Of a DNA stretch of 64,000 bases, positions 1 through 31,791 are shown piece after piece (position 1 is the first letter of the stretch; every line of letters starts with the position of its first letter). Under the pieces are notes generated by a model. It was not told where the DNA came from and made no database searches. It saw only the letters and a list, made by a program, of their open reading frames with translations. The DNA comes from a virus (lineage: Duplodnaviria; Caudoviricetes), in the IMG/VR virus record IMGVR_UViG_3300046615_000208, positions 96,001 through 160,000 of that record. One strand, written 5' to 3'. Made by a program: the position numbers and the translations under genes.

Positions 1-1
1 G

Positions 2-256
2 GAGTCGTTGGAGACTCGCGCCACGGATGAGATTTGCGGCGTCTGGTACAACCGTCTGGGAGCCTCTAAGCATGCGGCAGGGGAATTGTGCCAGTGGGAT
101 ATGTTCAGCCGCCCATGGTGCCACGTAGCGCGTTACGCGTCCGAAGAGCTTACGGAGTGGTTCGCTCGCAATGGCCGGATGACGTTTTCCGAGTGGCGCG
201 AAAGTGAGCGCGAATTCATGCGGGAACAGTTTGACATGTACGCACAAAGCGCGTAG
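2..256 (+). CDS. hypothetical protein, 5'-truncated at window edge
   Basis: Frame open from base 2 to TAG at 254-256. Confidence 0.6.
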   Translation, partial: ESLETRATDEICGVWYNRLGASKHAAGELCQWDMFSRPWCHVARYASEELTEWFARNGRMTFSEWRESEREFMREQFDMYAQSA

Positions 257-293
257 TCTTTAGGTATCAGTTCAACCAACTTAGGAGTCGGTC

Positions 294-425
294 ATGGAAA
301 AGGAAGAACCCAGCTACATGATGTTTGCAAGGGCAAACGTGCGGGACGGGTACCAAACGTCACCCCGAGTAGTCCGCGAACTACTCGCCCGAATTGACCG
401 GCTCGAATCTACAAAAGACGCTTAG
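294..425 (+). CDS. small hypothetical protein (43 aa, MEKEEPSY...STKDA)
   Basis: TTAGGAG RBS then ATG 294; below ORF-track cutoff, translated manually. Confidence 0.55.
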   Translation: MEKEEPSYMMFARANVRDGYQTSPRVVRELLARIDRLESTKDA

Positions 426-434
426 GAGAAGATC

Positions 435-617
435 ATGGACACGAAAGAAATGGGCACATCGGACCTTGTACGGGAGTTCGCAGACATCAAGTGCGAAGGT
501 GTACGGCGAGCGTTCAAGGGTGAACGCGTGACCAGCGCCGAACACTCTCGGCTCTGTGATGTTGTCCACGAACTGCGCGTCCGTGGTGTGCTTGACAGAG
601 GCACACCTGCCCTGTAG
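435..617 (+). CDS. hypothetical early protein
   Basis: AGGAG RBS, ORF track. Confidence 0.65.
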   Translation: MDTKEMGTSDLVREFADIKCEGVRRAFKGERVTSAEHSRLCDVVHELRVRGVLDRGTPAL

Positions 618-658
618 GCTCTAGGTAACAACCAAACACAACGGCTTAGGAGGCCACA

Positions 659-1042
659 GTGAACCACGATCTTACCACCGAAGAGGGACGCATCGAGGCG
701 GCGAAGGAAGCAGGCCGTAACATCGCGGCCTACGAAATCCGTAGCGGGTACACGCTACTACGTGACTGGAACAAGGACGACGTACAGAACGCACGCGCAT
801 TCTCTCACCTTGCCGCCGTTGGGTTTACCCGTGCGGGTACGCGGATGTTCTCGCAGACGTTCGTGGACGCCTACAGGGCTGAATTCATCCGCCTGCGGCT
901 GGAACACCTGCGCGGAATTCTGAGGGCTGAGAGCATCAGCTACGGCGAACTGGTGGAGCTTCAGGGACTGGCTGAACACATCCAGCCGGGAGACGTGGAA
1001 CTGTTGGAGGCGGCAGGGGTTCCGGAGTTCCCGGAAGACTAA
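659..1042 (+). CDS. hypothetical early protein
   Basis: AGGAGG RBS, GTG start. Confidence 0.75.
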   Translation: MNHDLTTEEGRIEAAKEAGRNIAAYEIRSGYTLLRDWNKDDVQNARAFSHLAAVGFTRAGTRMFSQTFVDAYRAEFIRLRLEHLRGILRAESISYGELVELQGLAEHIQPGDVELLEAAGVPEFPED

Positions 1043-1132
1043 GCGTTTTTTGTAAGGGAGCCGGTGTTGACAGCATCGGCTCCCTTGCACTAGATTAGGT
1101 ATTACAAACCAACTAGTCCACAGGAGGACATC

Positions 1133-1531
1133 ATGGCAAAGCTCATCAAGCTGGACAACCAGACCATCAACGAACTGTTGGAAAGCCTGAAGCTCGTTGC
1201 GGGACAGAGCGGAGACTGGCGCGGAGTGCTGGACGGCGCAATCGACACCGTGGAGTCGTGGGCTGAGGCCACGGACGTACCGGAGCGCGTGATCTTCCGG
1301 AAGTTCCCCCACAACGGGGAAGTGATCGCCCTGTTCCCCGACCAGTACAACGAGCGGAACGGTAACATCGGGAGCTACATGCACAACGGACAGCACGCGG
1401 AAACGGCTCCCGACTTCGGAGACACCAAGCCTGCGGAGGCGCACGAGTACTACCACCTACAGCAGGAACTCATCCGGCAGGGATACCACAACCTGCGGAT
1501 CGTGAAGCGCTTCGGCAAGCTGGGCAAATAG
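1133..1531 (+). CDS. hypothetical early protein (VIFRKF...VIALFP...SYMH.GQH motif)
   Basis: GGAGGA RBS; own TTGACA/TAGATT promoter at about 1067-1096. Confidence 0.8.
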   Translation: MAKLIKLDNQTINELLESLKLVAGQSGDWRGVLDGAIDTVESWAEATDVPERVIFRKFPHNGEVIALFPDQYNERNGNIGSYMHNGQHAETAPDFGDTKPAEAHEYYHLQQELIRQGYHNLRIVKRFGKLGK

Positions 1532-1587
1532 TTACAAAAAACGCATACAGTCTAGGATTTGTGTCCTAGGCCGTATGCGTGTAGTCT
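1532..1587 (+). promoter_or_regulatory. cassette element: box + palindrome + -35 TTGTGT /17 bp/ -10 TAGTCT
   Basis: ACGCATAC..CTAGGA-TTTGTG-TCCTAG..GTATGCGT inverted repeat. Confidence 0.8.
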
Positions 1588-1624
1588 TTAGGTATCGGTT
1601 CATCAACGGCTTAGGAGGCCCACC

Positions 1625-2095
1625 ATGGTACACATGCTCACCATCAAGGATTTGGAAACCCGTTCGGACGGTACCTACTACACCGGACCACTGGAAGAGG
1701 CTAAGGCTTTCATCCACGACTGGATCGCCTCAACGGAGGCCCGATACAGCGACAAGAACGGGGAGGACAAGTACACCGTCCTGCTGGCCTACAGCGCTCC
1801 GAATGGCGAGATGGTGGAGACTGCCAACTACGACGAGTACGGGACCGGGAGGACCATGGAAGAGGCGTGGCGGTATGCTCTGGGCGCAGAGTTCGGTCCT
1901 GCCGACGACGAGTTCAACGCGTTCCCGCTGACACACGACAAGCGTGAAGCTGTCGCGGCCATGGTGGAACACCACTTCCCGGAACGTCTGGACACATTCT
2001 ACTCGGAGAGTACGGGACTGGCCGCAGTCGAGGACACGGATGGGAACATGTGGCGCGTATGGCCGGATGGGGACATTGAGGTCTACCGGCGCTAG
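1625..2095 (+). CDS. hypothetical early protein
   Basis: AGGAGG RBS; TAG adjacent to next box. Confidence 0.8.
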   Translation: MVHMLTIKDLETRSDGTYYTGPLEEAKAFIHDWIASTEARYSDKNGEDKYTVLLAYSAPNGEMVETANYDEYGTGRTMEEAWRYALGAEFGPADDEFNAFPLTHDKREAVAAMVEHHFPERLDTFYSESTGLAAVEDTDGNMWRVWPDGDIEVYRR

Positions 2096-2096
2096 G

Positions 2097-2152
2097 TTAC
2101 AAAAAACGCATATCGGGTGGGATTTGCATCCTGCCCGATATGCGTGTAATCT
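2097..2152 (+). promoter_or_regulatory. cassette element: -35 TTGCAT /17/ -10 TAATCT within hairpin
   Basis: ACGCATATCGGG..GGAT-TTGC-ATCC..CCCGATATGCGT. Confidence 0.85.
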
Positions 2153-2189
2153 TTAGGTACAAGGTAAGAACAACGGCTAGGAGGCCACC

Positions 2190-2435
2190 ATGAACAAGGC
2201 AAAAGCACTCAAGGTTCTGGCAGAGGTTGAAGAGCAGTTCAAGCTCTACATCGAAGCAGGGTACCCGCAACCGAACCTGCGGGACGCGGACCATGAGGAA
2301 CTGCCCAAGGGTTCATGGTCCATCGATTGGGAGGACGGTCCCGACGAATGGTGCTACGCAATGCCTGCGTCGAAGATTCCCGGTGTGTTCGTGGAACCGA
2401 TCATGTCGTTCATTCTCGGAGTCTACGACGACTAA
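2190..2435 (+). CDS. hypothetical early protein
   Basis: AGGAGG RBS. Confidence 0.8.
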   Translation: MNKAKALKVLAEVEEQFKLYIEAGYPQPNLRDADHEELPKGSWSIDWEDGPDEWCYAMPASKIPGVFVEPIMSFILGVYDD

Positions 2436-2494
2436 GACACCCTGAGAGGCCCTAGGAACCGCCTAGGGTCTCTCACTACCTGAGAGGCTACACA

Positions 2495-2710
2495 ATGTCC
2501 GCAAAGACGCTTACAAAGGCCGTAGCGATACGGGAAGGCTTGGCAGACTTCCAAGAGCAGGAACGGGAGGCGTGGCGGGCCTATGAAGAGGCTAACGCGT
2601 GCCACTGTTGCTGTTGTACCGGAGAGTGCTCCTACGCGTTCCAAGAGTCCACACCGGAGGAACAGGAAGCGTGGATGCGGAACTACTGGGACTGGTGGGA
2701 GAACCGATAG
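2495..2710 (+). CDS. small Cys-rich hypothetical protein
   Basis: CHCCCCTGEC motif; TAG abuts box. Confidence 0.65.
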   Translation: MSAKTLTKAVAIREGLADFQEQEREAWRAYEEANACHCCCCTGECSYAFQESTPEEQEAWMRNYWDWWENR

Positions 2711-2813
2711 TTACAAAAACCGCTTAGGCCGGTGGACTTGTGTCCATCGGCCATAGCGGGTAGAATCGTAGTATCGGGAACAAAGGGTTCCCCTGAAACC
2801 TTAGGAGGCTACA

Positions 2814-3047
2814 ATGGCAACACCACAGCATGCGGTCAAGGTAACACCGGCAGTAGTGGCACAGCGTTTTGCAATGGTGGAAAACGCGCCCACGGCTCCC
2901 ACAATCAACGGAAACCCTGCCAAGGTGTCCGGGTTCGCAAACCGGTTCGCGACGGTCACAGACAGCTTCACAGGCCTCTCTGCCGAGTGGTCTTGGGAGT
3001 CCGTCGAGCATGTAGTGAACAACCGGTTCGCGGCGTTCAAGGCATGA
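2814..3047 (+). CDS. hypothetical early protein
   Basis: AGGAGG RBS; promoter TTGTGT/17/TAGAAT at 2738-2766. Confidence 0.8.
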   Translation: MATPQHAVKVTPAVVAQRFAMVENAPTAPTINGNPAKVSGFANRFATVTDSFTGLSAEWSWESVEHVVNNRFAAFKA

Positions 3048-3181
3048 TCACGGTCACGGTCACATTCAAGGATGGGTCAGTAGACAACTGGTCTACCACC
3101 TTGGATTACGCGGTACATCTCACCGGCCAGTTGCTCATCGATCCGGACATTGTGGACGTGAGGCTATCGCGTCACGGATAG
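3044..3181 (+). CDS. small hypothetical protein (45 aa)
   Basis: ATGA overlap with upstream gene; TAG abuts box. Confidence 0.6.
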   Translation: MITVTVTFKDGSVDNWSTTLDYAVHLTGQLLIDPDIVDVRLSRHG

Positions 3182-3271
3182 TTACAAGAAACGCATAGCG
3201 GCTAGGACTTGCACCTAGCGGCTTTTGCGTGTAACCTTGAGGTATCAAGTCAAGCACTCAAGGGAGACACA

Positions 3272-3442
3272 ATGAACTTCGAAGCCGGAACCAAAGTCGA
3301 AATCCTCGAACGCGGCGCATGGGTAGGCCCGTTTGTCGTAACGCCTCATACGGCACGTACCGCCGATCATCTGGTACTCACCGGACCTAGCGGACTCTTC
3401 GAAGTCTACAACGACGCACCGTTCAACATCCGTAAGGCTTAG
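3272..3442 (+). CDS. hypothetical early protein
   Basis: Start moved to ATG after AGGGAG RBS; promoter TTGCAC/17/TAACCT. Confidence 0.7.
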   Translation: MNFEAGTKVEILERGAWVGPFVVTPHTARTADHLVLTGPSGLFEVYNDAPFNIRKA

Positions 3443-3539
3443 TTACAAAAACCGCTTAGGCCCTAGGACTTGCACCTAGGGCCTTAGGCGTGTAATGTTG
3501 TTCTTAGAGGGAGAGAGGGACTCTTCCGGATAGGGCACC

Positions 3540-3725
3540 ATGGAACTCTACAAGATCACCACAGCGGTCAAGGTCACTGAAAACCTCACGTGGGACCGCG
3601 TGTGTGACATTCTGGCAGTCTCCGACGATGGAGACGCGTGGGGCGCTCACGAGTGGCTCGAAGAGCGTGGAGAGTACCCGTTCCTGTCCGCCTACGGCGA
3701 CCAGATGATCCTGACTCGCATGTAG
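3540..3725 (+). CDS. hypothetical early protein
   Basis: Own promoter TTGCAC/17/TAATGT. Confidence 0.7.
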   Translation: MELYKITTAVKVTENLTWDRVCDILAVSDDGDAWGAHEWLEERGEYPFLSAYGDQMILTRM

Positions 3726-3827
3726 GTTACAAAAACCGCTTAGGGAGTCGGACTTGCATCCGGCTCCCCTAGCGGGTAAGCTTTAGGTAATGGAGCAACC
3801 GGCTCCCGGAAGTCCTAGGAGGACACA

Positions 3828-4091
3828 ATGGGTTACATGGAAGAATCAGACCGCCTCGAAGAAGCAGCGAACAAGAACCCGCTCAAAGAAGGCGTAGTCG
3901 GAAGCAAGCTCGTTGCGTACTTCGAGAACCTTGACGGACGCGTAGCGGTCGATGCCGAGTCCATCGAACACGTGGGCGTGGCCCAGCACGACTACAAGAT
4001 CACCTTCGAGGGTGGACTCGTTCAGGCCTACCGCGTGACGTTCGCGGACGGCATGAGCTCCGAGATTCTGGACGCAACGCCGCTCAACTAG
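3828..4091 (+). CDS. hypothetical early protein
   Basis: AGGAGG RBS; promoter TTGCAT/17/TAAGCT. Confidence 0.8.
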   Translation: MGYMEESDRLEEAANKNPLKEGVVGSKLVAYFENLDGRVAVDAESIEHVGVAQHDYKITFEGGLVQAYRVTFADGMSSEILDATPLN

Positions 4092-4186
4092 TTACAAAAA
4101 CCGCTTAGGGTCCGGACTAGACATTCGGACCCTAAGCCGGTAGACTCATCACAACGGAACAATCCGGAAACCAAAAGGAGCAAGTC

Positions 4187-4474
4187 ATGAAGTCGGTAAT
4201 CACCAAGCTGGAAGTCTCGGAGCGTCTGCTGGGCGTGGATCGCTACGAACTGGAAGTCAAGGGCCAAAAGGCCCACAACACCATCGTGGAACTCCACACG
4301 GACATCAACACCGGAGACCGCCACGTCTTCGTCCAGACGCCGGTAAACGGCGGCCTGACGCCGTCCACGGCTGATGCAGTCGCTCGACGCCTCATCGACG
4401 GTGCACGGAAGTACGCGGGAAACCACGTGACACCCGCCAGCGTGGTACGGGTTGGACGCTACGCGGCCAGCTAG
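4187..4474 (+). CDS. hypothetical early protein
   Basis: AAGGAG RBS; promoter TAGACA/17/TAGACT. Confidence 0.8.
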   Translation: MKSVITKLEVSERLLGVDRYELEVKGQKAHNTIVELHTDINTGDRHVFVQTPVNGGLTPSTADAVARRLIDGARKYAGNHVTPASVVRVGRYAAS

Positions 4475-4568
4475 TTACAAAACACGCGTAGAGCCTCGGA
4501 CTTGTGTCTGAGGCTCTTTGCGTGTAAGCTCTAAGTATCGGAACAATCCGAAGACGAAAGGCAAGACA

Positions 4569-4826
4569 ATGAACATCAAGCTCATTCACAACATCGTGGA
4601 CATGACCCAGATGCACGGATTCGGCAACGATTTCTCGCTGGTCTACGGCTTCGATAACGGCACCAAGATGGCCGTATCGCGTAACCCCATGACAGGTGGA
4701 CACAAGGCCGGTTTCATGGCCGTCCTGCCCTACGACAAGGCCGGTAACCAGATTGACGAGCGTGCCGAGTCGTGGCTCACCCCGCAGGAAGTCGCGGAGA
4801 AGATGGAAATCCTCGCCAGCGAGTAG
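4569..4826 (+). CDS. hypothetical early protein
   Basis: GAAAGG RBS; promoter TTGTGT/17/TAAGCT. Confidence 0.75.
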   Translation: MNIKLIHNIVDMTQMHGFGNDFSLVYGFDNGTKMAVSRNPMTGGHKAGFMAVLPYDKAGNQIDERAESWLTPQEVAEKMEILASE

Positions 4827-4909
4827 TTACAAGAAACGCGTAGGGCCTAAGTTGACTTCGGTCAGCTTAGGCCTTATGCTTGTAGTACACACCAACGAAA
4901 GAGGAAACC

Positions 4910-5116
4910 ATGGCTCGCTACTCCACTCCAGCAACTCGCGCCTACGCTCGTGACAAGGCCGAAATCATCGGCGCGGCTGAGCGCGTGATCTACGGCGAAA
5001 TCCTCGACTTTGTCCTGCGGGTAGGCAGGCACAAGGCTACGCCGTTCCTCGCCGTACTGGGCGGGTTCGCGTACATCATCTTTGGTCACGGGCTTGTGAA
5101 CTCCATAAACCTGTGA
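4910..5116 (+). CDS. small membrane protein
   Basis: C-terminal hydrophobic segment; promoter TTGACT/17/TATGCT. Confidence 0.7.
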   Translation: MARYSTPATRAYARDKAEIIGAAERVIYGEILDFVLRVGRHKATPFLAVLGGFAYIIFGHGLVNSINL

Positions 5117-5384
5117 TACAATAAACTCACAGACATACACTGAAGCCTCCGGAGATGACCACCAAATCTCTCCGGAGGCTTCGCCAATTGTGGGATAGTT
5201 GGCTTACAAAAAACGCGTAGCGGATAGGTTTGCATTCCGGCGCAAAGGTGGTAAGCTTAGAACATGGAAGGGGAGGTTAGGAGCCTCCACCCGCCAGACT
5301 AAGAATCTGGGGGTTCGGGAAGTGATCGCCCACCGATCACCGGCAGGCCAGTCCGCAACTGGCCGTATAACTCAACAGTGAAAG

Positions 5385-5603
5385 GTGGACACCATGGTAG
5401 AAGTTCCCATGGAAGAGGCTGACGTTCTGGAACAGGTCAAGGCCAAGACGGGAGCGGTAGACGCGAAGGTGTCTGGGAGGCCCACAAACTGGGTCTGGTC
5501 GGTCCTGCTGGCATTCCCGGATGGTCCGGACGCCTACACGTTCCAGACGCGTCTGGTGGACGTAGAAGGCCCTGAGATTCGGTTCGTCGGCTTCGACTTC
5601 TAG
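5385..5603 (+). CDS. hypothetical early protein behind a structured leader
   Basis: GAAAGG RBS; TAG abuts box. Confidence 0.7.
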   Translation: MDTMVEVPMEEADVLEQVKAKTGAVDAKVSGRPTNWVWSVLLAFPDGPDAYTFQTRLVDVEGPEIRFVGFDF

Positions 5604-5712
5604 TTACAAAAAGCGCATAGCCTGTCTTCGGACAGGCTATTTGCATTTGGGCGCAAAGGTGGTAAGCTTATTCCATAAGCAGTTCACAACTCCACAGAGA
5701 AAAGAGAGACCA

Positions 5713-5919
5713 GTGAAGGTTTTCTTCGAAGCACTTGTCGATGGACAGTACGTCAACCAGAAGCGCCTCGCGGATATCCCGGATGAGAAAGCTTACGCTA
5801 GGGCGGCTAAGGCCTACCCGAACGATCCGGACTACGTGGAGGAAATGCTCGACGGACGCGGCTACATCACCATCAAGGGCCACAACTGCCGGTTCACTTA
5901 CCAGCAGGACAGCCTCTAG
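5713..5919 (+). CDS. hypothetical early protein
   Basis: GTG start after purine-rich RBS; TAG abuts box. Confidence 0.7.
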   Translation: MKVFFEALVDGQYVNQKRLADIPDEKAYARAAKAYPNDPDYVEEMLDGRGYITIKGHNCRFTYQQDSL

Positions 5920-6022
5920 TTACAAATAGCGCATAGGGCCTCTACGGAGGCCCTATTTGCATTTGGGCGCAAAGGTGGTATCGTTGAGTTATCGGCAAGG
6001 GTTGCCGGTGAGAGAGGGAACC

Positions 6023-6337
6023 ATGGACAAGTACACGACTGAAGCTCTGGAAGCTGCGAAGAACAGCACTAGCTCGATGAGCGCGGGGGATCGCAACGCC
6101 GCTCCCTACCTGCTCAAGCTGGACACTGTGGAGCAGCGTAAGCGTGCTGTAGGGGACGCGCACACTCGGATGAACCTCATGGGGTTCCGCTACTCCGAAG
6201 CTGTCTACCACTCCGTTAGTGACCTGCTGAAGAACATTGCCGCAGGGGAAGAGGACAAGCCACTCTATGGCGAAGCCACTGCGAAGAAGTACCGGGACGC
6301 GGAAAACGAACGCCGGAAGCTGGAACGCGGCTACTGA
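6023..6337 (+). CDS. hypothetical early protein
   Basis: GAGGG RBS, ATG 6023. Confidence 0.75.
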   Translation: MDKYTTEALEAAKNSTSSMSAGDRNAAPYLLKLDTVEQRKRAVGDAHTRMNLMGFRYSEAVYHSVSDLLKNIAAGEEDKPLYGEATAKKYRDAENERRKLERGY

Positions 6338-6351
6338 TACAAAAAGCGCTT

Positions 6352-6387
6352 AGGCTCTCATCCTCCGGGGTGGGAGCCTTTTGCTTT
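6352..6387 (+). terminator. intrinsic terminator closing the rightward arm
   Basis: AGGCTCTCATCC-TCCG-GGGTGGGAGCCT followed by TTTGCTTT. Confidence 0.75.
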
Positions 6388-6607
6388 GCCTGCGGGTGGC
6401 CCTCTGTGACGTTCTGGGAGCCTCTGAGGCTCGGGGTGGCACTCTCACCCACGCGGGCGATTCTAGGGCCTTAGACGGGCACGTAAGGCCTGCGGTAGGT
6501 CTACACGTGCTGTGCGACTCTGGGCGGCTGTTTAAGGGCCTAACTGGGCGCAGACGTACAAAGACCCCCAACCTTTCGGTTGAGGGCCTCTGTGGGGCTG
6601 TGAGGGC

Positions 6608-6838
6608 CTAGAACGGCGGTTCAAACTCTGGGAGGTAAGTCCGGAGTTCCGGAGCGGGAAGTTCGGGGACTACGTGACCGTAAGGGCAAGCGTTGTCGTA
6701 GTCGAGGTAGTCGTGCTCTTCGCAGTAGTAGGCCTGTTCATCCGCGAAGTGATCGACGTTGTCCGCCGCCATTGCTTCGCGCCACGCGGAGTCATCCCGG
6801 TTGTAGTCCTGCTCTTCCTGCCACTGTACCTGAGACAT
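6608..6838 (-). CDS. acidic hypothetical protein
   Basis: GAGG RBS, ATG 6838; C-x2-H..C-x3-H motif. Confidence 0.7.
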   Translation of the reverse strand: MSQVQWQEEQDYNRDDSAWREAMAADNVDHFADEQAYYCEEHDYLDYDNACPYGHVVPELPAPELRTYLPEFEPPF

Positions 6839-6935
6839 TTTTTCCTCTCGTGGCCGGTGTTTCCGGCTCATGTACTGAGCTTAGCACGGCAAACAGAAAA
6901 CGCGCAACCCCGAAGGGTTACGCGTTTTTTGTAGG

Positions 6936-7169
6936 CTACAGATCGTTCCGGTGTTCGTAATCCGAAACCAGCTTAGCCTCGATAGCTTCGTCAAGCTCTT
7001 CCCGTGTCACGAACGGCTTGTTAGGGTGTTCGTGTGACTCCATGGCCTCGCACTTTTCGCAAGTCTCGTACAGGTCCGGGAGGTAGATTGCGGCAACCCA
7101 AGATTCTTCACCGGTAGCCTTCGTCCACTCGGCAGCGGCTTCGTTGAACGGGATGAGTGATGCGGACAT
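6936..7169 (-). CDS. hypothetical early protein
   Basis: AAGGAG RBS; CxxC. Confidence 0.75.
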   Translation of the reverse strand: MSASLIPFNEAAAEWTKATGEESWVAAIYLPDLYETCEKCEAMESHEHPNKPFVTREELDEAIEAKLVSDYEHRNDL

Positions 7170-7261
7170 TGGTTTCTCCTTGGTTGTTTTTGACCTTGTA
7201 CCTAAAGCATAGCACGGTTTGGTGGAGCGTGTCTAGTCGGGAGGCTGTGCGTTTTTTGTAA

Positions 7262-7312
7262 GTCCCATTTTTATTTTATGGGTCCTCCGGTTTCCCTGCT
7301 GGTGGGCTTCAT
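7262..7312 (-). ncRNA. candidate small RNA copy A (AUGAAGC...GGAGGACCC family)
   Basis: Promoter TTGACA(7347-7342)/17/TAGACT(7324-7319); no substantial ORF; similar to 9629 and 10258 copies. Confidence 0.5.
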
Positions 7313-7362
7313 GGTTCAAGTCTAAGGCCTGTCGGCCTGAGTGTCAAGCCTACGGCAGACAC

Positions 7363-7392
7363 AAAAGAGGGGAGCCTTTCGGCTCCCCTCTT
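7363..7392 (-). terminator. intrinsic terminator (identical 20-mer at 9753-9772)
   Basis: GGGGAGCCTTTCGGCTCCCC hairpin with U-tract on - strand. Confidence 0.8.
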
Positions 7393-7404
7393 ATGCGTTT
7401 TTTG

Positions 7405-7662
7405 TTACCATGCGAAGTAGCTTGAGGTCCGCCAGCTACGGAGGATGGTGTAATCGGTAAGGCGTTCGGCCTGTTCCCACGTGGTGGGCTGTACAAGGCC
7501 CGTAGCGGGGTTCAGAATGGCTGGCTTGACCGCGTGTACGCCGATGAGGATTGCAGGCTCTCCTTCGAGCGTGAAGCGCTTTGCGGCGATTGCCTCGCGG
7601 CGTTCCATGCTCACGATGGTGAGCGGCTGAGTGGCGAGGATTCGAGCGACTGTGCGGAACAT
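7405..7662 (-). CDS. hypothetical early protein
   Basis: AGGGAG RBS, ATG 7662. Confidence 0.7.
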   Translation of the reverse strand: MFRTVARILATQPLTIVSMERREAIAAKRFTLEGEPAILIGVHAVKPAILNPATGLVQPTTWEQAERLTDYTILRSWRTSSYFAW

Positions 7663-7752
7663 TTTGACTCCCTGACTGGTGGCTTGCTGTTGGTACAAGC
7701 TTAGCATAGGTCCGGTGCTGTTGCCAACACCGAACCTATGCGTTTTTTGTAG

Positions 7753-7998
7753 CTAGTCGATGTCCACCGCGACACGTGCCAGCGATCCGGTACCGAAGTA
7801 GTCCACATTCAGCAGGTACTCCGCGCCATTCCAGCGAGCGCGTGCGCCGCTCCTGTAGCCGTTGTCGAGCATGTGATCAGCGATGGCCTCGCTGGATGCG
7901 TTCTCGATGGCGTAGGCCTTGCCACGGACGACGTAGCGGCTTCCGGCCACTCCGCGAACTGTGCGCTGGGTCTGGTTCTTCTTGATGGTCTTTCCCAT
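7753..7998 (-). CDS. hypothetical early protein
   Basis: AAGGAG RBS. Confidence 0.75.
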   Translation of the reverse strand: MGKTIKKNQTQRTVRGVAGSRYVVRGKAYAIENASSEAIADHMLDNGYRSGARARWNGAEYLLNVDYFGTGSLARVAVDID

Positions 7999-8094
7999 TG
8001 TCTTTGTGCTCCTTGTGAAGTGTGTTGTTGAGTTGCCCTAGTTGGCATTCCCGCTTAGGTGATACTTGAGTGTACCACCTAAGCGAGCAAACCG

Positions 8095-8343
8095 CTAGGG
8101 GAGTTCCAGTAGCCAAGTGTCTGAGTAGACATTCTTTCGGATGATAACGGTATCATCCTTTGCCAGTTCTTCCAGCTTCCGGGAGTAGTTCCGGATGTTT
8201 TCCGGAGTCTCCGCTATGTCGTGGTAGGAGAGGACATTCTCTACCGTCTTCCGGATGAGCGTTGCGCGATCCTGTGAGTGGGAATCGTAGAATCCATCGT
8301 GCCATTCTTCGATGTACTGGAGGATGTTTGCTTCGCGTGACAT
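8095..8343 (-). CDS. hypothetical early protein
   Basis: AAGGAG RBS; promoter TTGCAT/17/TAGACT. Confidence 0.75.
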   Translation of the reverse strand: MSREANILQYIEEWHDGFYDSHSQDRATLIRKTVENVLSYHDIAETPENIRNYSRKLEELAKDDTVIIRKNVYSDTWLLELP

Positions 8344-8433
8344 GTCCTGCTCCTTTGTTCTCGGCTTGTTCCGATAACTAGAGTCTACGCTAGTCCGGAG
8401 AGTTATGCAACCCTCCGGACTAAGCGTTTTTTG

Positions 8434-8625
8434 TTAGTCTTCGAGGTCTTCGATCTCTTCCGCCTCTGCGGGCTGGAATCCGTGCTGGTCTTCGAGTTCT
8501 TCGAGGGTGGTGTAGAAGAATCCACCGATCCCATCCGGAGTGATGAAGTACATGTCATCCTTGCGGATGTAGTAGGCCGTGTCCACGGCGAGTTCGGAAC
8601 GCGGGGTGATGGTTGCCTGTGCCAT
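8434..8625 (-). CDS. acidic hypothetical protein
   Basis: AAAGGA RBS; promoter TTGCAA/17/TAAGCT. Confidence 0.75.
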   Translation of the reverse strand: MAQATITPRSELAVDTAYYIRKDDMYFITPDGIGGFFYTTLEELEDQHGFQPAEAEEIEDLED

Positions 8626-8713
8626 TGTTTTTTCCTTTGTTTGAGTGGCTATGTATCTAGCTTAGCCTAGGTGAGGGAGTCTTGCAACTCCCCCACCTAA
8701 GCGTTTTTTGTAA

Positions 8714-8968
8714 CTACGCTTTACCGTAGTGGCCACCATCCGGCAGGCCAGCTGTGCAGGGGTAGAAGTGGATCGGCCACGCGGCATCTTCGCCACCCTC
8801 AGCGAGGAAATCCGAGTTGTAGTCGAGCCACAGATCACGCTTGGAGTCGAACTCGTCGTTAAACCAGTCGTGGCCTTTGGTGGCCTTTGCAACGTCTGCA
8901 CAGTCTGCGCGGTGGACGCTGACGTCGTAGTCGTTGTTCCCGTTGCCGTTAATGGTTACCAGCTTCAT
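8714..8968 (-). CDS. hypothetical early protein (H-x3-C...C motif)
   Basis: AAGGAG RBS; promoter TTGTAT/17/TACGCT. Confidence 0.8.
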   Translation of the reverse strand: MKLVTINGNGNNDYDVSVHRADCADVAKATKGHDWFNDEFDSKRDLWLDYNSDFLAEGGEDAAWPIHFYPCTAGLPDGGHYGKA

Positions 8969-9061
8969 GATGACTCCTTAGGTCTCGGCTTGTTCCGATA
9001 TGACTAGCGTACACGCAAAAGGTCCGAGATACAAATCTCGGACCCTATGCGTTTTTTGTAG

Positions 9062-9493
9062 CTAGCCGATGTAGATGCTCACCTTGTTGGCAACATCCCA
9101 GACGGCGAGTTGTTCGCGTTCCTTGGCAACGAGAATGGCCATCTCGTAGTCTTCGAACCACTCTGAGGCCTCTGCGTAGACGACTCCGGACTCTACCCAT
9201 GTTCCCATGAGTCCGAGGCCGTCAGTGGCTGCGTAAGCCATTCCCAGAGCGAATTGGTAGTCTCGTGTGTCCGAGTCTGCGAGATTGAACATGTGGGGCT
9301 TGTGGAGGCCTGACACGTAGTAGCCGTGCGTGTGCGTGGCGATTGCCATTGTGGGGCTGGAGAGGTCCAGCGTTACGCCACCGTTGGCGTGTGTCTCACG
9401 TGAGAGGGTGACGCCGCGAATCTGACCATAGGTCCGGAGCTTCGGGGTGACGCCGGAGTTTTCGTTACGCATGGTTTCGACGGTGACAGTCAT
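9062..9493 (-). CDS. hypothetical early protein
   Basis: AGGAGG RBS, ATG 9493. Confidence 0.75.
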   Translation of the reverse strand: MTVTVETMRNENSGVTPKLRTYGQIRGVTLSRETHANGGVTLDLSSPTMAIATHTHGYYVSGLHKPHMFNLADSDTRDYQFALGMAYAATDGLGLMGTWVESGVVYAEASEWFEDYEMAILVAKEREQLAVWDVANKVSIYIG

Positions 9494-9628
9494 TGTTTCC
9501 TCCTGAGTGGATCGGATGGTTTGATATGAAGAGCATACCACTACTTTAGGAGATGATGCAAACTACGCGATTGTTACGTGCGTTTTTTGTAAGTTGCGTG
9601 TGAGCGCGGATGCGTGTATGCTCAGAGT

Positions 9629-9682
9629 ATGAAGCAACCGATTGAAGCTGGGTCACTGGAGGACCCCTAAAATAAGTGGGCC
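9629..9682 (+). ncRNA. candidate small RNA copy B
   Basis: Promoter TTGCGT(9594)/17/TATGCT(9617); ATGAAGC...GGAGGACCCCTAAAATAAGTGGG. Confidence 0.45.
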
Positions 9683-9782
9683 GGAAAGTAGGCATCACTC
9701 CATTCTCTCATAGTTTTTGGGTGGTTGTCAAGCTGCCGGAGGGCAAAGAAAAGGGGAGCCTTTCGGCTCCCCTTCCCTCACC

Positions 9783-10094
9783 TTAGAGGGTTTCGTACTT
9801 GCCGTCCGCCTGACGGTACTTGATGTACGTGCAACCCGCGTCATGCGTGGCCCAGTCGAGCGGCTGGAACGCGTCCTCCGAGTCCGCGTCACCATAGAAG
9901 TAGCCGGTGAAGTAGCAGTTGTCGTCGTCGTCGTACAGCTTGAAGTGGGTGCCCTTGCCAGCCTTGCCAGCCTTGATCGCGTCACGCTCTGCGGGGCTGG
10001 TGCCGTACACGCGGGGCTTCTCCAGCTTCTCCAGCTTCTCACCGAAGTTCGGGTTGTTCTCTTCGATTGCCGAGTGAGTGATCGTGAATCCCAT
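9783..10094 (-). CDS. hypothetical protein (FKLYDDD..YF.G...PLD....AGCT.I.Y)
   Basis: TAGGAG RBS. Confidence 0.8.
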   Translation of the reverse strand: MGFTITHSAIEENNPNFGEKLEKLEKPRVYGTSPAERDAIKAGKAGKGTHFKLYDDDDNCYFTGYFYGDADSEDAFQPLDWATHDAGCTYIKYRQADGKYETL

Positions 10095-10196
10095 TGTGAC
10101 TCCTAAGTCCGTTTCTCAAGCTCCCTGCTTGATGACTTAAGTCTCTCATACATTCCGGACGGATGCAACTCCATTCTGACAATGCGTTTTTTGTAA

Positions 10197-10258
10197 GTGT
10201 GGTTTGTGGAGGTTGGAGTTTTTGGGGTCCTCTGGTTTCCCTGCCTCCGGAGCTTCAT
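10197..10258 (-). ncRNA. candidate small RNA copy C
   Basis: Promoter TTGACT(10293-10288)/17/TAGACT(10270-10265); about 70-bp similarity to 7280-7350. Confidence 0.5.
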
Positions 10259-10360
10259 AGTATGAGTCTAAGGCCTATTCGGCGCAGAGTCAAGCGGCGC
10301 TGTGTGGCGTTCTAAGCCACGCAAAAGGACCCTACCGTAGTAGGGTCCTAGTGGCCGGTG

Positions 10361-10633
10361 CTAGTCGCAGCAGTGGCGGCTGGTGCACGTGTGGTTGTGG
10401 ATGTTGCACGCGCTGTCCGTCAGGATTCCCTCGGTGGACTCGGTACGCTCCACTTCCTGCATCTCGGAGGGGTCAGCGTATCCGCCCAGTTCCTGATCGC
10501 ACTCGGTGCACTCGGTGTTGCTGGTGGAGTACTCGCCACAGTTGGAGCAGGCGAACAGGGTGGGGCAGTCGCACTCGGTGTTGGCCGGTTCCATGTTTTC
10601 GTACTGCCGCTGTGCTGAGGCGAATCCGCGCAT
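10361..10633 (-). CDS. Cys/His-rich putative zinc-binding protein
   Basis: Multiple CxC/CxxC; TAGGAG RBS. Confidence 0.7.
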   Translation of the reverse strand: MRGFASAQRQYENMEPANTECDCPTLFACSNCGEYSTSNTECTECDQELGGYADPSEMQEVERTESTEGILTDSACNIHNHTCTSRHCCD

Positions 10634-10730
10634 CTTGACTCCTAAGTCGTATCGGCTTGTTCCGATGTACTAAGCCTAAGGCATGCGGTGAGGGATTGCA
10701 ACACCATGCGGTGAAGCGTTTCTTGTAACC

Positions 10731-11180
10731 CTATGCGGTGCACTCTGGGTAGCTCCACAGTTCGTCGTATTCGAACTGGTGAGCGTAGGCCTCAGCCTCG
10801 CACTCGTTGGCTCCCATAGTGTGTGCAAGCTCATGGAACAGGATGTGATTCCCCCACGCTGTGTAGGCAAGCTCAGGGGAGATAAGGACAGCGTACTGTC
10901 CATTGTCCATAGGGACAGTGCATCCTCCCTGCCCAACAGTGGAGAGTTCAGCGCCACAGTTGTCTTCATTCTGGAACAGGAACACCACGTTCTCAGGGTA
11001 GTCTACGCCACCATCAGCAAGGGCCTCACGCGCCCAGAGTGAGGGTAGCTTGAATGGTGCGAGGGATAGGGTGGTGGAGTAGTTGGCAGTCTCCCTAACA
11101 GGCGCTGACGTGGGCGCTGGGGCCTGCACTGGTGCAAAGATAGCTGACAGTGTGAGCAGGATGGTGAGCATGATGTTCAC
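10731..11180 (-). CDS. secreted or membrane-anchored HExxH metallopeptidase-like protein
   Basis: Signal-like N-terminus; FHELAH..G..E.EAEAYA. Confidence 0.65.
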   Translation of the reverse strand: MNIMLTILLTLSAIFAPVQAPAPTSAPVRETANYSTTLSLAPFKLPSLWAREALADGGVDYPENVVFLFQNEDNCGAELSTVGQGGCTVPMDNGQYAVLISPELAYTAWGNHILFHELAHTMGANECEAEAYAHQFEYDELWSYPECTA

Positions 11181-11209
11181 TGTGACTCCCTTGTGAGTGG
11201 TTGACTAAG

Positions 11210-11470
11210 TCAATCCTCTCATGAGTTTGTCTCATGTGTCAACTCGAAACACTAAGCGTCTTTTGTAAAGTTTGTGCCTTGTTTCTACACACGCGCACAT
11301 GTGCACGCGATTGTCCTCTATTGTTTGGTGTTTGTCAACATGCTGGCCCTAAGAGTTTTTTGTAACCCTCGTGTGGGAGTGCGTGATTATCCTCTAGTTT
11401 TTTGGGATTGTCAATGGGTTTGGCAAAGAGTTTTTTGTAACCTCGTGCGCGTGAAGCGTTTTTTGTAACG
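11210..11470 (-). promoter_or_regulatory. tandem leftward promoters with boxes
   Basis: Three box + TTGACA units and a fourth box; no convincing ORF. Confidence 0.65.
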
Positions 11471-11629: not shown

Positions 11630-12503
11630 TTAACTAGCGTCAAGTACCGCTCTCACTACATCATTCATGTCCTGCTCCACCCAGTATTCGTGCCCATCTG
11701 TCGTGGTTACCTTTGTCCGGAAGTAGTCCTTGAATTGAGGCTCCCCGTTAGGGAACTGAGTATCCATAGCAGCCTTTAGGCTTTCCATCTGATCAGGCGA
11801 CCCCTTGGCCCTTTCGATATCCCTCTTCGCCTTGAAGTGCGAAAGCGAATCTCGGCGGTACGCTTCGTGATCCATCATGCAGTCCACCGTAACGACATGC
11901 CTCACCACGATCTTCTTCCCATCAGGTGTCGATAGCAGCTTCATTTGCTCTCCTTCGGTTTCTTGATCGCTACCTTCTTAATCGCACACGGCCCGTAGTG
12001 CCCCTTCCATAATCCACAAGTCCCTTCAGCACACGGACCTTGCCGATCCATCAACTCCTGCTCACGCATAGCCAAGATGCGCTCCAGAACCTGAACACGC
12101 ACCCCCACACTCTCCCGGAGCCTCTTGTCGATCTTCTTCTCCGCAGCATCGAAGCTCGGAATCCCGAACGATTTCCCGTCTGCCAAAACACCCTCCCTTT
12201 TTCCAAATCCCAAAAATAAAATAGAAAAAATTCTACATAACCATACACACTTACGTGTTAACTTCCATCCGCGAGTCCAGCAGCTAGCTCATCGGCTGAC
12301 AGGATATCCACTGTCACACCGACCTCAGCCAGTATCGCCTTTAGGTCTGCAATGTTCAGGCCGTCACCACTCCGGAGGTTTGCTGGCGCTGTACACGTCT
12401 TGCATTCCTCCACTAGCGGAATCGAATAGCTGTCAGAGTAGTCCACAGTCACTACGTCCTCCCAGCGTCGGAATCTGCCGCAGATATTACACTTGGCTGT
12501 CAT
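11630..12503 (-). CDS. three small hypothetical genes (11630-11944, 11941-12213, 12258-12503 CxxC)
   Basis: Tightly packed; ATGA/TGA overlaps. Confidence 0.65.
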
Positions 12504-13237
12504 ACGTTCACCACACCCAGAAGATCGGCTTCCATGAACCTCGGAGCAGGCTCCAGAATCCACTTCTTCCGTGTGAACTTCACCGTTTCCGTCACGCCGT
12601 TCTTGCGCGTGAAGGAGGTACTCCCCTGTGTAAGAGCGCGTCGGACCAAGGTTCCTTCCCGCACCCACGGAGCAACATGCTGGTAGTTCACCCCGATCTC
12701 GTCCAGCTTACGGATGCGCCCGTACGTGGACACCCCGTCCAGTTCCTTGTGCGAGAAGTGGTGCGAAGCCAGCATGCTCACGCTGTTCTTGATCGCATCC
12801 CCCTGCCGCCAGTCGAGGTAGGCCCTCACATCCCCAAGAGTATGCAAGTGATGGACTCGGGCGTCAAACAACGCCACATCCCCACTAGGCCGCAGGGAAT
12901 TGAACTTCGCAGTCGCCATGGCCGCAGTGATCGAGACGATCTTCTGGGTCTGACCGCCGAACCACCAGTCCGTGTTCTCACCAGCAAGATCGGAGAACAC
13001 CACGGAGATTTCATCCGACTGGGTGTATGCCAGCACAGCCCCGTCAATATTCTCACACAGGTACCGTGCAGTCTCCTGCATGTCCTGAGTGAATTCCGCG
13101 TCGAACGGTTTCTTCAGCTTCTTCGTGTACTTGGAGAAGCCCTTCCCGTCCACGCGCACCACGGCGTAGCTCTTCTTGGGGAGGTACAGCCTGTACTCCT
13201 TCTCCAAATCCTTCATTACGGTGTTCTCGTTATTCAT
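12500..13237 (-). CDS. thg1: tRNA(His) guanylyltransferase Thg1-like protein
   Basis: RVDGKGFSKYT, YTQSDEIS, FDAR and WRQ.D..KNS motifs. Confidence 0.92.
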   Translation of the reverse strand: MNNENTVMKDLEKEYRLYLPKKSYAVVRVDGKGFSKYTKKLKKPFDAEFTQDMQETARYLCENIDGAVLAYTQSDEISVVFSDLAGENTDWWFGGQTQKIVSITAAMATAKFNSLRPSGDVALFDARVHHLHTLGDVRAYLDWRQGDAIKNSVSMLASHHFSHKELDGVSTYGRIRKLDEIGVNYQHVAPWVREGTLVRRALTQGSTSFTRKNGVTETVKFTRKKWILEPAPRFMEADLLGVVNV

Positions 13238-31788: not shown

Positions 31789-31791
31789 GAC

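Follow-up and report, generated by a model that had tools for sequence, protein, structure and literature searches.

The DNA analyzed here (the window) comprises 64,000 nucleotides, bases 96001 to 160000 of the 171,752-bp virus record IMGVR_UViG_3300046615_000208, a record judged to be 99% complete. It carries the right-hand part of an array of small open reading frames (ORFs) that are joined to one another by a recurrent module, in which the stop codon of one gene is followed by a 13-bp box, a hairpin, and promoter-like sequences for the next gene. We read this structure, with a probability of roughly 0.7, as a composite promoter-terminator array of early-type ORFans that is shuffled by homologous recombination, similar to the promoter-early stem-loops (PeSLs) of T4-type phages. 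The evidence consists of the anatomy of the joints, the spacing of box and promoter, the covariation of the hairpin arms, conservation across phage lineages, and an enrichment of breakpoints at the modules.

By its sequence, the phage is an actinobacterial siphophage of 172 kb and a relative of Arthrobacter phage Racecar, that is, a large phage from soil with presumed Arthrobacter-type hosts. Its major head protein shares 63 to 64% identity with those of Mimi, Racecar, Talia1610, and Atuin, phages of Arthrobacter globiformis with genomes of 192 to 194 kb, and 37 to 44% with those of large Gordonia and Microbacterium phages. The metagenome runs containing the phage are from the rhizosphere, and no RNA run is listed among those in which it occurs. 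Two metagenomic sequences were used for comparison alongside the cultured phages, a 95-kb fragment of a relative (G001) and a 168.6-kb phage (L071), and a megablast search of window positions 1 to 12 kb against GenBank phages yielded no match. Positions below refer to the window unless they are given as genome positions.

Results

A two-arm array of boxed cassettes

When the box, TTACAAAAAACGC, is searched with up to two mismatches, 30 copies are found in the window, 29 of which lie within 409 to 11468, whereas dinucleotide shuffles contain a mean of 0.84 and a maximum of 5. An earlier note made from the sequence alone (the original prediction) had described the region as modular, with single-gene units that are each bounded by a box and a hairpin-promoter element, and these counts agree with it. 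Across the whole record there are 64 boxes, and 60 of them fall in genome 80.6 to 107.5 kb. Their positions place the start of the 27-kb array about 15 kb to the left of the window, which therefore holds only the right-hand ~40%, and the original figure of about 25 cassettes refers to the in-window portion and falls short of the true size of ~60 joints and ~85 small ORFs. Box orientation tracks the direction of the small ORFs, on the plus strand up to 6349 and on the minus strand from 6922, with one inverted copy, and the A/T skew agrees with the direction of the arms (A>T skew of +0.15 in the rightward arm). The two convergent arms that had been proposed are thus borne out by boxes and ORFs alike.

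Stop codons and boxes are closely linked. In 29 of 60 copies a stop triplet runs exactly to the start of the box, and each of the other offsets accounts for three copies at most. TAG is the stop of 37 of the 45 box-adjoining ORFs compared to 38% of long ORFs genome-wide (p = 2e-9). The original statement that ORFs stop at the box, mostly with TAG, accordingly holds for the codon and, for exact abutment, in the 29 joints just mentioned. In a few copies a TAA stop is made from the first bases of the box itself (TAAC variant). The possibility that TAG is part of the box was rejected, as the gene-less promoters at the head of an arm have the box without TAG.

A typical joint contains, in this order, the stop codon, the box, an inverted repeat of 13 to 17 bp per arm, the -10 sequence TAnnnT (mostly TAAGCT), a TTAGGTA-like stretch, a leader hairpin, an AGGAGG-like ribosome-binding site (RBS), and the start codon, which lies ~90 to 100 nt after the box. 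The composite module is ~110 nt long, and folding energies of -21 to -38 kcal/mol, with z scores of -4 or lower, are reached by about 35 of the 60 copies. An alignment of 29 canonical copies from this genome and a relative shows that A3, C4, A5, A6, A8, C11, G12, and C13 of the box are invariant.

The array genes are largely without recognizable relatives. Pfam gave no significant match for any of 27 in-window ORFs, and among the 37 array proteins compared with Pfam in all, the only matches are to one HNH endonuclease, which has a known function, and one domain of unknown function; both are encoded among ten larger ORFs left of the window (HNH, genome 81561-81986; DUF7178). Two of 20 array ORFs fall in PHROGs, both of unknown function. 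The genes are real, as indicated by a pooled ratio of nonsynonymous to synonymous substitutions (dN/dS) of 0.23 at dS 0.46 for 28 cassettes shared with G001. Position and analogy suggest that the cassettes may act in host takeover or against host defenses, as had been supposed.

Individual array genes deserve mention. The HNH gene (plus strand; Pfam HNH_5/HNH, E = 4e-11) is 89% identical in G001 and adjoins an inverted pair of boxes within the array (81391 on the plus and 81478 on the minus strand), and three further HNH-like ORFs are located elsewhere in the genome. The most conserved array protein, of 199 aa (genome 86343-86942), has 94% identity in G001 and 57 to 61% in Racecar, Atuin, and L071, and matches no Pfam family. 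In Racecar and Atuin it is the product of gene 1, at the physical left end, while here its gene lies 6 kb inside the array. At 2711-3181, two overlapping frames occur: an ORF with a good RBS (2814-3047, 77 aa) stops 134 nt before the next box, and a second frame, open over 2732-3181, ends in TAG directly at the box. This could represent two small genes, a frameshift, or an assembly error. The ORF called at 9728-10042 on the minus strand is probably in the wrong frame, and the RBS indicates 9783-10094 instead.

The box keeps a fixed distance from a predicted promoter

A promoter-like site, that is, a -35-like hexamer (TTGACA, TTGCAT, or TAGACA) together with TAnnnT, is present in 45 of 60 joints, with a spacer of 17 to 19 nt, most often (34 joints) of 17 nt. 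All 29 aligned copies agree in the T, A, and T of TAnnnT, and the -35 lies in the loop of the hairpin, so that, at the level of sequence, the sigma-A-like promoter named in the original prediction is recovered. The 3' arm of the hairpin forms the spacer, and with the -35 in the loop, the stem occupies promoter positions that are free in sequence. A whole-genome scan did not find a sigma-70 region 2 domain (PF04542), which makes the host RNA polymerase the likely reader of the array promoters.

The box starts 25 to 28 nt before the -35 in 37 of 45 promoters, and the exceptions, at 15, 17, and 36 nt, are about one helical turn off. Relative to the promoter, the box thus occupies approximately -62 to -50. 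The same spacing is found in about a dozen promoters that have no hairpin and in the three tandem, gene-less promoters at the head of the leftward arm (11206-11468), where upstream gene, TAG, and hairpin are all missing and the box still precedes the -35 by 26 to 27 nt. This arrangement suggests that the box is an upstream promoter element, either UP-like or the site of a factor. Three joints consist of a box and terminator only, and other joints consist of a box and an RBS, one pair of which (genome 88223 here, 42323 in G001) is orthologous across dS ~0.46. By their sequence, many of the box-plus-RBS joints could have arisen by deletion between two TTAGG sequences, one at the base of the stem and one in the context of the RBS.

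Two side observations concern the promoters of the rightward arm. Those at 5229, 5640, and 5956 are alike and share an identical 16-nt spacer. In addition, the leader driven by the first of these, within 5204-5393, is near-identical in G001, whereas neighboring genes are ~85% identical; its fold has a z score of only -1.8, and this ~130-nt leader may be a regulatory leader or a small RNA. A scan of window positions 1 to 30 kb with Rfam detected no RNA family, tRNA included.

Covariation and strand asymmetry point to a hairpin in the sense RNA

A covariance model with a 17-bp stem, an approach that the original prediction had suggested, gives 71 matches across this genome, G001, and Racecar. 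In the resulting alignment, which is itself fitted to the structure and favors G-U pairs, 77.6% of cells are paired compared to 54% in shuffles and no more than 47% with slid partners, double-change cells number 247 versus 97 expected, and compensatory changes occur at all 17 pairs. The hairpin arms therefore differ between copies yet keep pairing, just as had been noted. Compensatory substitutions are also seen in orthologous modules that were aligned independently (98097/52180 and 104436/57798; genome position here/position in G001), and in some orthologous modules the whole hairpin is replaced between a conserved box and a conserved -10 (97532/51616).

The two strands are not equivalent. 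Pairs of the G-T type on the sense strand number 115, compared to 49 A-C pairs, which are the wobble pairs of an antisense RNA. In model-free folding, 66 of 69 copies were more stable as sense than as antisense RNA (mean, -25.5 versus -20.0 kcal/mol; p = 2e-12). As a DNA cruciform would give no such asymmetry, an RNA fold is indicated, and the sequence argues that the hairpin is selected as the sense RNA of the upstream transcript. Being 5' of the inferred start of its own promoter, the hairpin is expected only in read-through RNA from the upstream gene, where it probably serves to attenuate or terminate the upstream message or to protect its 3' end.

Copies at the ends of arms (6337, 6934, and 7407; genome 95222) have tetraloops and T-runs, the textbook form of a terminator. 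Internal stems are followed within 8 nt by 2.7 U on the sense side versus 5.4 U on the antisense side, where the U-run corresponds to the A-run of the box. The outer TTACA/TGTAA pairing, which the original prediction had seen in several copies, is found only where the extended -10 reads TGTAA, that is, in ~6 of 30 copies; it exists in these but is not a conserved part of the element. A -1 frameshift signal, formed by A AAA AAC of the box before the hairpin, was considered and rejected, as it lies past the stop codon and the boxes of Racecar and Atuin do not contain the heptamer.

The box core in related phages and the terminal repeat of Racecar

Four to five related phage lineages share the core of the box, TTACAAAA. 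It is invariant in Racecar, Atuin, G001, and L071, and the adjoining bases are lineage specific. Intergenic spaces of Racecar contain TAG followed directly by TTACAAAA, lineage-specific bases, and a hairpin with TTGACA in the loop; the Atuin box reads TAACAAAAA or TTACAAAAA and has its own continuation; and L071 has TAG and TTACAAAA with a third continuation. In all three of these phages the -35 begins 26 to 27 nt after the start of the box. Several Atuin genes end in a separate classical terminator, in which case the box follows the terminator and stays with the promoter. At the shorter distance to G001 (dS 0.46), orthologous boxes are 94% identical, compared to 77 to 87% for their surroundings.

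Searches of IMG/VR with Racecar-type and Atuin-type boxes revealed no multicopy contig. On a low-depth contig of a co-occurring strain, at 5926, TTACAAA is followed by a Racecar-like version of the box and a different tetraloop hairpin, and box variants may thus coexist in one habitat. In Microbacterium phage Zooman, the early array (2.7 to 16.4 kb) has -35 sequences in hairpin loops and the same GTAAGCTGTAG-type -10 as the present phage, without the TTACAAAA box, and another upstream motif of ~24 nt, which contains ACTCTTGCGTG, recurs 6 to 7 times after terminators.

In Racecar, matches offset by 173,709 bp reveal a direct terminal repeat of 20,468 bp (1-20,468), which holds both arms, with 36 small genes rightward and 4 leftward, and ends just past the leftward arm. 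The arms of Atuin contain 23 and 9 genes. In three metagenome runs, the k-mer contig depth over window positions 1 to 11.7 kb is about twofold that over 11.7 to 13 kb, and the nonredundant length of Racecar, 173.7 kb, is close to the 171.8 kb of the present record. Depth and length fit a collapsed terminal repeat and, by analogy with Racecar, hint that the array of this phage may be one.

Gain, loss, and replacement of cassettes at the modules

Both arms are also present in G001, where 48 boxes occur with no more than one mismatch. Its shared blocks are colinear and 75 to 93% identical, and about half of the array ORFs have no counterpart between the two genomes. Breakpoints were defined as the ends of chained colinear matches to G001 and were measured to the nearest box. 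Of 60 block ends, 33 lie at -8 to +100 of a box start (22% expected, p = 4e-8), and 16 lie at -8 to +16 (5.4% expected, p = 7e-8; 14.8% under an intergenic-only null, p = 0.012). The coordinates of G001 concur, with 17 of 58 ends at a box (p = 0.001 on the intergenic null). Homology usually restarts 1 to 4 nt before a box and usually ends 14 to 16, ~30, or 54 to 86 nt after it.

Single events illustrate the same pattern. A single box here (genome 91005) corresponds to two in G001, which enclose an insert of 978 bp. The match of the upstream gene runs to the first of these boxes, and that of the downstream promoter begins at the second. Among cultured phages of ~94 to 96% identity, Racecar has an extra cassette (gene 18) relative to Mimi and Talia1610, with its left junction directly after the box and its right junction at the RBS. 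At a greater distance, homologues of 16 cassettes recur in the array of Racecar or Atuin; they are ordered differently there, and one is found in the opposite arm. Junctions thus fall at several conserved patches, namely, the box, the -10/start region, the leader, and the RBS. The original prediction of shuffling at the element is upheld with regard to gain, loss, replacement, and reordering, with breakpoints at modules; it needs amending in that junctions are found not only between TAG and TTAC but also after the promoter and at the RBS. A fixed colinear gene order with breakpoints unrelated to boxes, which it had named as the outcome that would speak against it, is not what the relatives display.

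No tyrosine (PF00589) or serine (PF00239) recombinase was matched in the 99%-complete genome, with controls positive, and the remark that no recombinase is visible in the window thus extends to the whole genome. Given several junction patches and no such enzyme, general homologous recombination is the economical mechanism.

Contig joints and loose ends in four rhizosphere runs were also considered as candidate box-to-box recombinants. They were left unused, as the joints have sides no longer than 30 nt and are repeat induced. Of 17 loose-end consensus sequences examined, five correspond to other copies of the module in the same genome, and a few loose ends that match neither genome start exactly at TAG and box (2708) or at the box (6337, 5926), each as a single low-depth contig.

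Features of the array in the window

The in-window features are compiled in Table 1. To the right of the array, PHROGs matches identify a portal protein, a head protease, the major head protein, a 1941-aa tape-measure protein, and enzymes of nicotinamide adenine dinucleotide (NAD) salvage. The latter are a ribose-phosphate pyrophosphokinase and a nicotinamide phosphoribosyltransferase, which are adjacent at 30880-33303 (E = 6e-63 and 7e-175); the pair is also present in the Racecar annotation. An ORF of 2506 aa (36832-44352) with SF1-type helicase and zincin-like regions directly follows the portal gene, and a gene for a Thg1-like tRNA-His guanylyltransferase is located close to the right end of the array on the minus strand (12500-13237; E = 1e-66). 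ParB_N has no match in the genome.

Table 1. Array features in the window, by position. Hairpin energies, hexamers, and start codons are given where available; promoter and terminator assignments are predictions.
Position	Strand	Feature	Start codon	Remark
1..6611	+	Rightward arm, in-window part		From boxes and ORFs; arm begins at genome 80.6 kb
409..434	+	Promoter-less joint: box directly followed by RBS	435	
1043..1055	-	Sole inverted box inside the rightward arm		Just past the stop of ORF 659-1042
1532..1587	+	Module: TAG at box, hairpin (-26.7 kcal/mol), -35 in loop (1559), -10 TAGTCT (1582)	1625	
2097..2152	+	Module: box, 16-bp hairpin (-31 kcal/mol), -35 in loop (2123), -10 TAATCT (2147)	2190	Compensatory changes relative to G001 orthologue
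2711..2768	+	Module: TAG at box, hairpin (-33 kcal/mol), weaker promoter (TTGTGT/TAGAAT)	2814	
3182..3237	+	Module: TAG at box, hairpin, -35 (3209), -10 (3232)	3272	
3443..3498	+	Module: TAG at box, hairpin, -35 (3470), -10 (3493)	3540	
3727..3782	+	Module: box, hairpin, -35 TTGCAT (3754), -10 TAAGCT (3777)	3828	Top covariance-model match (74 bits)
4092..4146	+	Module: TAG at box, hairpin, -35 TAGACA (4118), -10 TAGACT (4141)	4187	
4475..4530	+	Module: TAG at box, hairpin (-35 kcal/mol), -10 TAAGCT (4525), small leader hairpin	4569	
4827..4880	+	Module: TAG at box, long hairpin, -35 TTGACT (4852), -10 TATGCT (4875)	4910	
5204..5393	+	Box and promoter without hairpin, ~130-nt leader	5394	Leader near-identical in G001
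5604..5668	+	Variant module: TAG at box, tetraloop hairpin, promoter displaced downstream by one helical turn		Box to -35, 36 nt
5920..5984	+	Variant module, as at 5604..5668	6008	Box to -35, 36 nt
6337..6394	+	Terminator at end of rightward arm: box, hairpin, T-run		No promoter
6608..11468	-	Leftward arm, convergent with rightward arm		From boxes, ORFs, and skew
6878..6934	-	Module at end of leftward arm: box A-run pairs with T-run, then -10 TAAGCT		Bidirectional-looking terminator
7206..7261	-	Box and promoter without hairpin	7169	Box to -35, 26 nt
7319..7407	-	First three box bases form TAA stop; GAAA-tetraloop terminator and T-run		Separate promoter (TTGACA, 7347)
7698..7752	-	Module: TAG at box, hairpin (-32 kcal/mol), -10 TAAGCT	7662	
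8382..8436	-	Module: TAA stop inside box, hairpin, -35 TTGCAT, -10 TAGACT	8343	Compensatory change relative to G001
8659..8713	-	Module: TAG at box, hairpin, -10 TAAGCT	8625	
9004..9061	-	Module: TAG at box, hairpin, weaker promoter	8968	
9532..9592	-	Box and promoter without hairpin	9493	
10184..10196	-	Box, weak promoter, no hairpin	10094	
10673..10728	-	Box and promoter without strong hairpin	10633	
11206..11468	-	Head of leftward arm: boxes at 11268, 11365, 11440, and 11468		Three tandem TTGACA promoters
11700..12200		Zone of depth drop; possible right end of a collapsed direct terminal repeat (~27 to 28 kb)		Hint only

Discussion

The array is best explained as a set of self-expressed cassettes joined by a composite linker. 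Most genes would be separate expression units, linked to one another by the stop codon, box, GC-rich hairpin, -10, leader hairpin, and RBS. The hairpin would act in the upstream transcript as an attenuator, a terminator, or a protection of the 3' end, while its arms would fill the sequence-free parts of a promoter of the host SigA type. The box would be an upstream promoter element read by the host RNA polymerase in the manner of an UP element, or by a conserved factor, and its A-run would provide the hairpin with a U-run for antisense transcripts. As ~60 repeated modules, the joints would supply patches of homology for general homologous recombination, and exchange at these patches could add, delete, or swap cassettes between co-infecting relatives with the neighbors unharmed.

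Several points weigh against this explanation. By canonical rules, the few U residues on the sense side make the internal hairpins weak sense terminators and good antisense ones, and the pairing counts come from an alignment fitted to the structure, as stated above. A generic scanner for sigma-70 promoters and terminators finds 10 sites versus 5 expected, a weak enrichment that is accounted for by its expecting TATAAT and T-runs, the -10 here being of the actinobacterial TAnnnT type. Promoter and terminator activity and early timing are predictions from sequence. The box is present without a promoter in four box-plus-RBS joints here and four in G001, and its retention at promoter-less joints means that an upstream promoter element alone is not a sufficient explanation. 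The preference for TAG is not accounted for by this reading. As to the breakpoints, their enrichment may reflect selection against junctions within genes, and alignments can snap to or extend through a conserved box, inflating the number of breakpoints there; the data locate the surviving junctions rather than reveal how these formed.

What the box does can be read in other ways. It might be an operator for a sequence-specific regulator, from the host or the phage and possibly injected, which switches ~50 promoters together, in the way that a single repressor reads the stoperators of mycobacteriophages, with hairpin and shuffling secondary. The site is indeed asymmetric, 13 bp long, and always oriented with transcription; its 8-bp core is invariant across lineages that share only 57 to 64% protein identity; TTAC is kept base by base, rather than merely being A/T-rich; and the box is confined to the array and is kept at promoter-less joints. 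However, no candidate binder was identified, the cassette proteins having no matches to DNA-binding domains, and the fixed distance to the -35, with its helical-turn exceptions, fits an activator or a contact with RNA polymerase equally well. Moreover, the earliest genes must fire before any phage protein exists, unless the factor is injected, and we consider an operator possible but doubtful. That box and hairpin serve mainly as an insulator against antisense transcription from the convergent arm would account for the richer U-runs on the antisense side and for the arm-end copies, which resemble bidirectional terminators where arms converge. Yet wobble pairs and folding energies favor the sense RNA, in Racecar and Atuin a shorter A-run stands apart from the stem, promoters that lack a hairpin still have the box in its usual position, and ~50 antisense terminators are far beyond need, all of which make this function improbable.

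The selection of the structure in sense RNA, the long and perfect duplexes of 13 to 17 bp, and the weak sense U-runs, which make read-through transcripts containing the hairpin likely, would also suit RNA processing sites in long early transcripts, similar to the RNase III sites of T7, with the A-rich box as a single-stranded cleavage or landing region. But most genes have their own promoter, and monocistronic messages need no processing; stems here are shorter than typical RNase III substrates, and hairpin-less promoters retain the box in its place. We therefore regard processing as very unlikely. A dedicated recombination site, at which a phage enzyme (the array HNH or an unrecognized recombinase) would cut or pair the box as in integrons, has in its favor that the box is the sole element common to all types of joints (promoter, terminator only, and RBS only), that a clean indel of two boxes versus one and ORF-precise replacements occur, that the stop codon abuts the box, and that an HNH endonuclease gene is located in the array. 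Against it stand the lack of a tyrosine or serine recombinase in this nearly complete genome and of an annotated HNH gene in the Racecar or Atuin arrays, the junctions after the promoter, in the leader, and at the RBS, which homology-driven exchange predicts, the promoter of each cassette, which integron cassettes do not have, and the fixed -35 spacing, which such a site leaves unexplained. Its probability is very slight indeed. A more speculative combination, to which we give little credence, is that a dedicated factor of this clade recognizes the TTACAAAA core, coordinates ~50 promoters, and also targets strand exchange. The factor might be a protein that is delivered with the virion or made very early, or else a nuclease, for example the HNH enzyme of the array. 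If this were true, the array would be an integrase-free cassette-capture platform of a lytic phage.

A promoter-terminator array shuffled by homologous recombination has its closest precedent in the PeSLs of the T4-type phages RB49/phi1, PST/T4, and nt-1/KVP40 (Arbiol et al. 2010, PMC2839356; Comeau et al. 2014, PMC4122927), whose shuffling by general homologous recombination has been proposed and partly shown (PMC2839356). As in PeSLs, a stop codon in an A/T-rich stretch is followed by an early promoter of the host sigma type, an overlapping stem-loop (which in one PeSL class overlaps the -35), an RBS, and a start codon. Also in common are dense arrays in front of ORFans in hypervariable regions, junctions at several points, and no need for a dedicated recombinase. 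All of the defining PeSL features at the sequence level are found in the present array, and this analogy of the original prediction is well taken. The two systems are not homologous, as they belong to an actinobacterial siphophage and T4-like myophages, respectively, and the module sequences are unrelated, with a SigA TAnnnT promoter here. The 13-bp box with its 8-bp core, abutting the stop codon at a fixed distance from the -35, is also a difference from PeSLs, as are variable, covarying arms in place of polyG/polyC stems and a single two-arm array (a terminal repeat in relatives) in place of several internal hyperplastic regions.

The other analogy that had been drawn, to integron attC sites, does not hold up. 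Similarities are that single-gene units in one orientation end in an imperfect palindrome and that their content varies between relatives. Unlike in integrons, however, there is no IntI integrase, and 45 of 60 joints have their own promoter-like site, compared to the one Pc promoter of an integron. The R''/L''-L'/R' architecture and GTTRRRY core of attC are absent, the box being a single asymmetric 5' element without an inverse 3' copy; and the structure appears to be selected as sense RNA rather than bottom-strand DNA, with junctions that are not at a single point.

The terminal redundancy of Bacillus phage SPO1 and the terminal repeat of T5 contain tens of small, mostly unknown genes with many strong early promoters of the host type and terminators, and these genes are presumed to be the first expressed. 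The array resembles the host-takeover module of SPO1 and the pre-early genes of T5 in place and gene type, its own terminal-repeat status being suggested by the relatives and the depth hint; we know of no conserved box at the joints of the SPO1 and T5 modules. Stoperators of cluster A mycobacteriophages are asymmetric sites of 13 to 14 bp near stop or start codons that occur genome-wide and are bound by the immunity repressor of these temperate phages. The box is like them in form only, as a multicopy asymmetric site of ~13 bp, in one orientation, in short intergenic spaces beside stop codons. It differs in that 60 of 64 copies lie in one 27-kb array at a fixed distance upstream of promoters, in an apparently lytic phage; no repressor or integrase was found in this genome. 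UP elements are A/T-rich, lie at approximately -40 to -60, and are contacted by the C-terminal domain of the RNA polymerase alpha subunit. Centered near -55, the A-run of the box is in fixed helical phase with the -35 of presumably strong promoters, as would suit an UP element, whereas base-by-base conservation of TTAC and retention of the box at promoter-less joints would not. To our knowledge, there is no UP-element consensus for Actinobacteria.

In literature searches of limited coverage, we found no account of this element for Arthrobacter phages or for other phages of actinobacteria. The finding adds another group of phages to those with the PeSL pattern and does not amount to a system of a new kind. 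Its form is unusually regular, with ~60 joints and an 8-bp core kept across lineages, and among the PeSL-like arrays that we could document in this phage group it is the most regular. The TTACAAAA core is of most interest for what reads it and for its persistence beside TAG at promoter-less joints. The cultured phages Racecar, Mimi, Talia1610, and Atuin of Arthrobacter globiformis carry the same modules and make them accessible to bench work. The array also offers a catalogue of ~85 small ORFans, predicted to be early, and its modules may serve as portable promoter and insulator parts for Arthrobacter-type hosts. For the biology of these phages, the array implies that the PeSL design, in which insulated, self-expressed cassettes are joined by a promoter-terminator linker that would double as a seam for recombination, is used by large actinobacterial siphophages as well.

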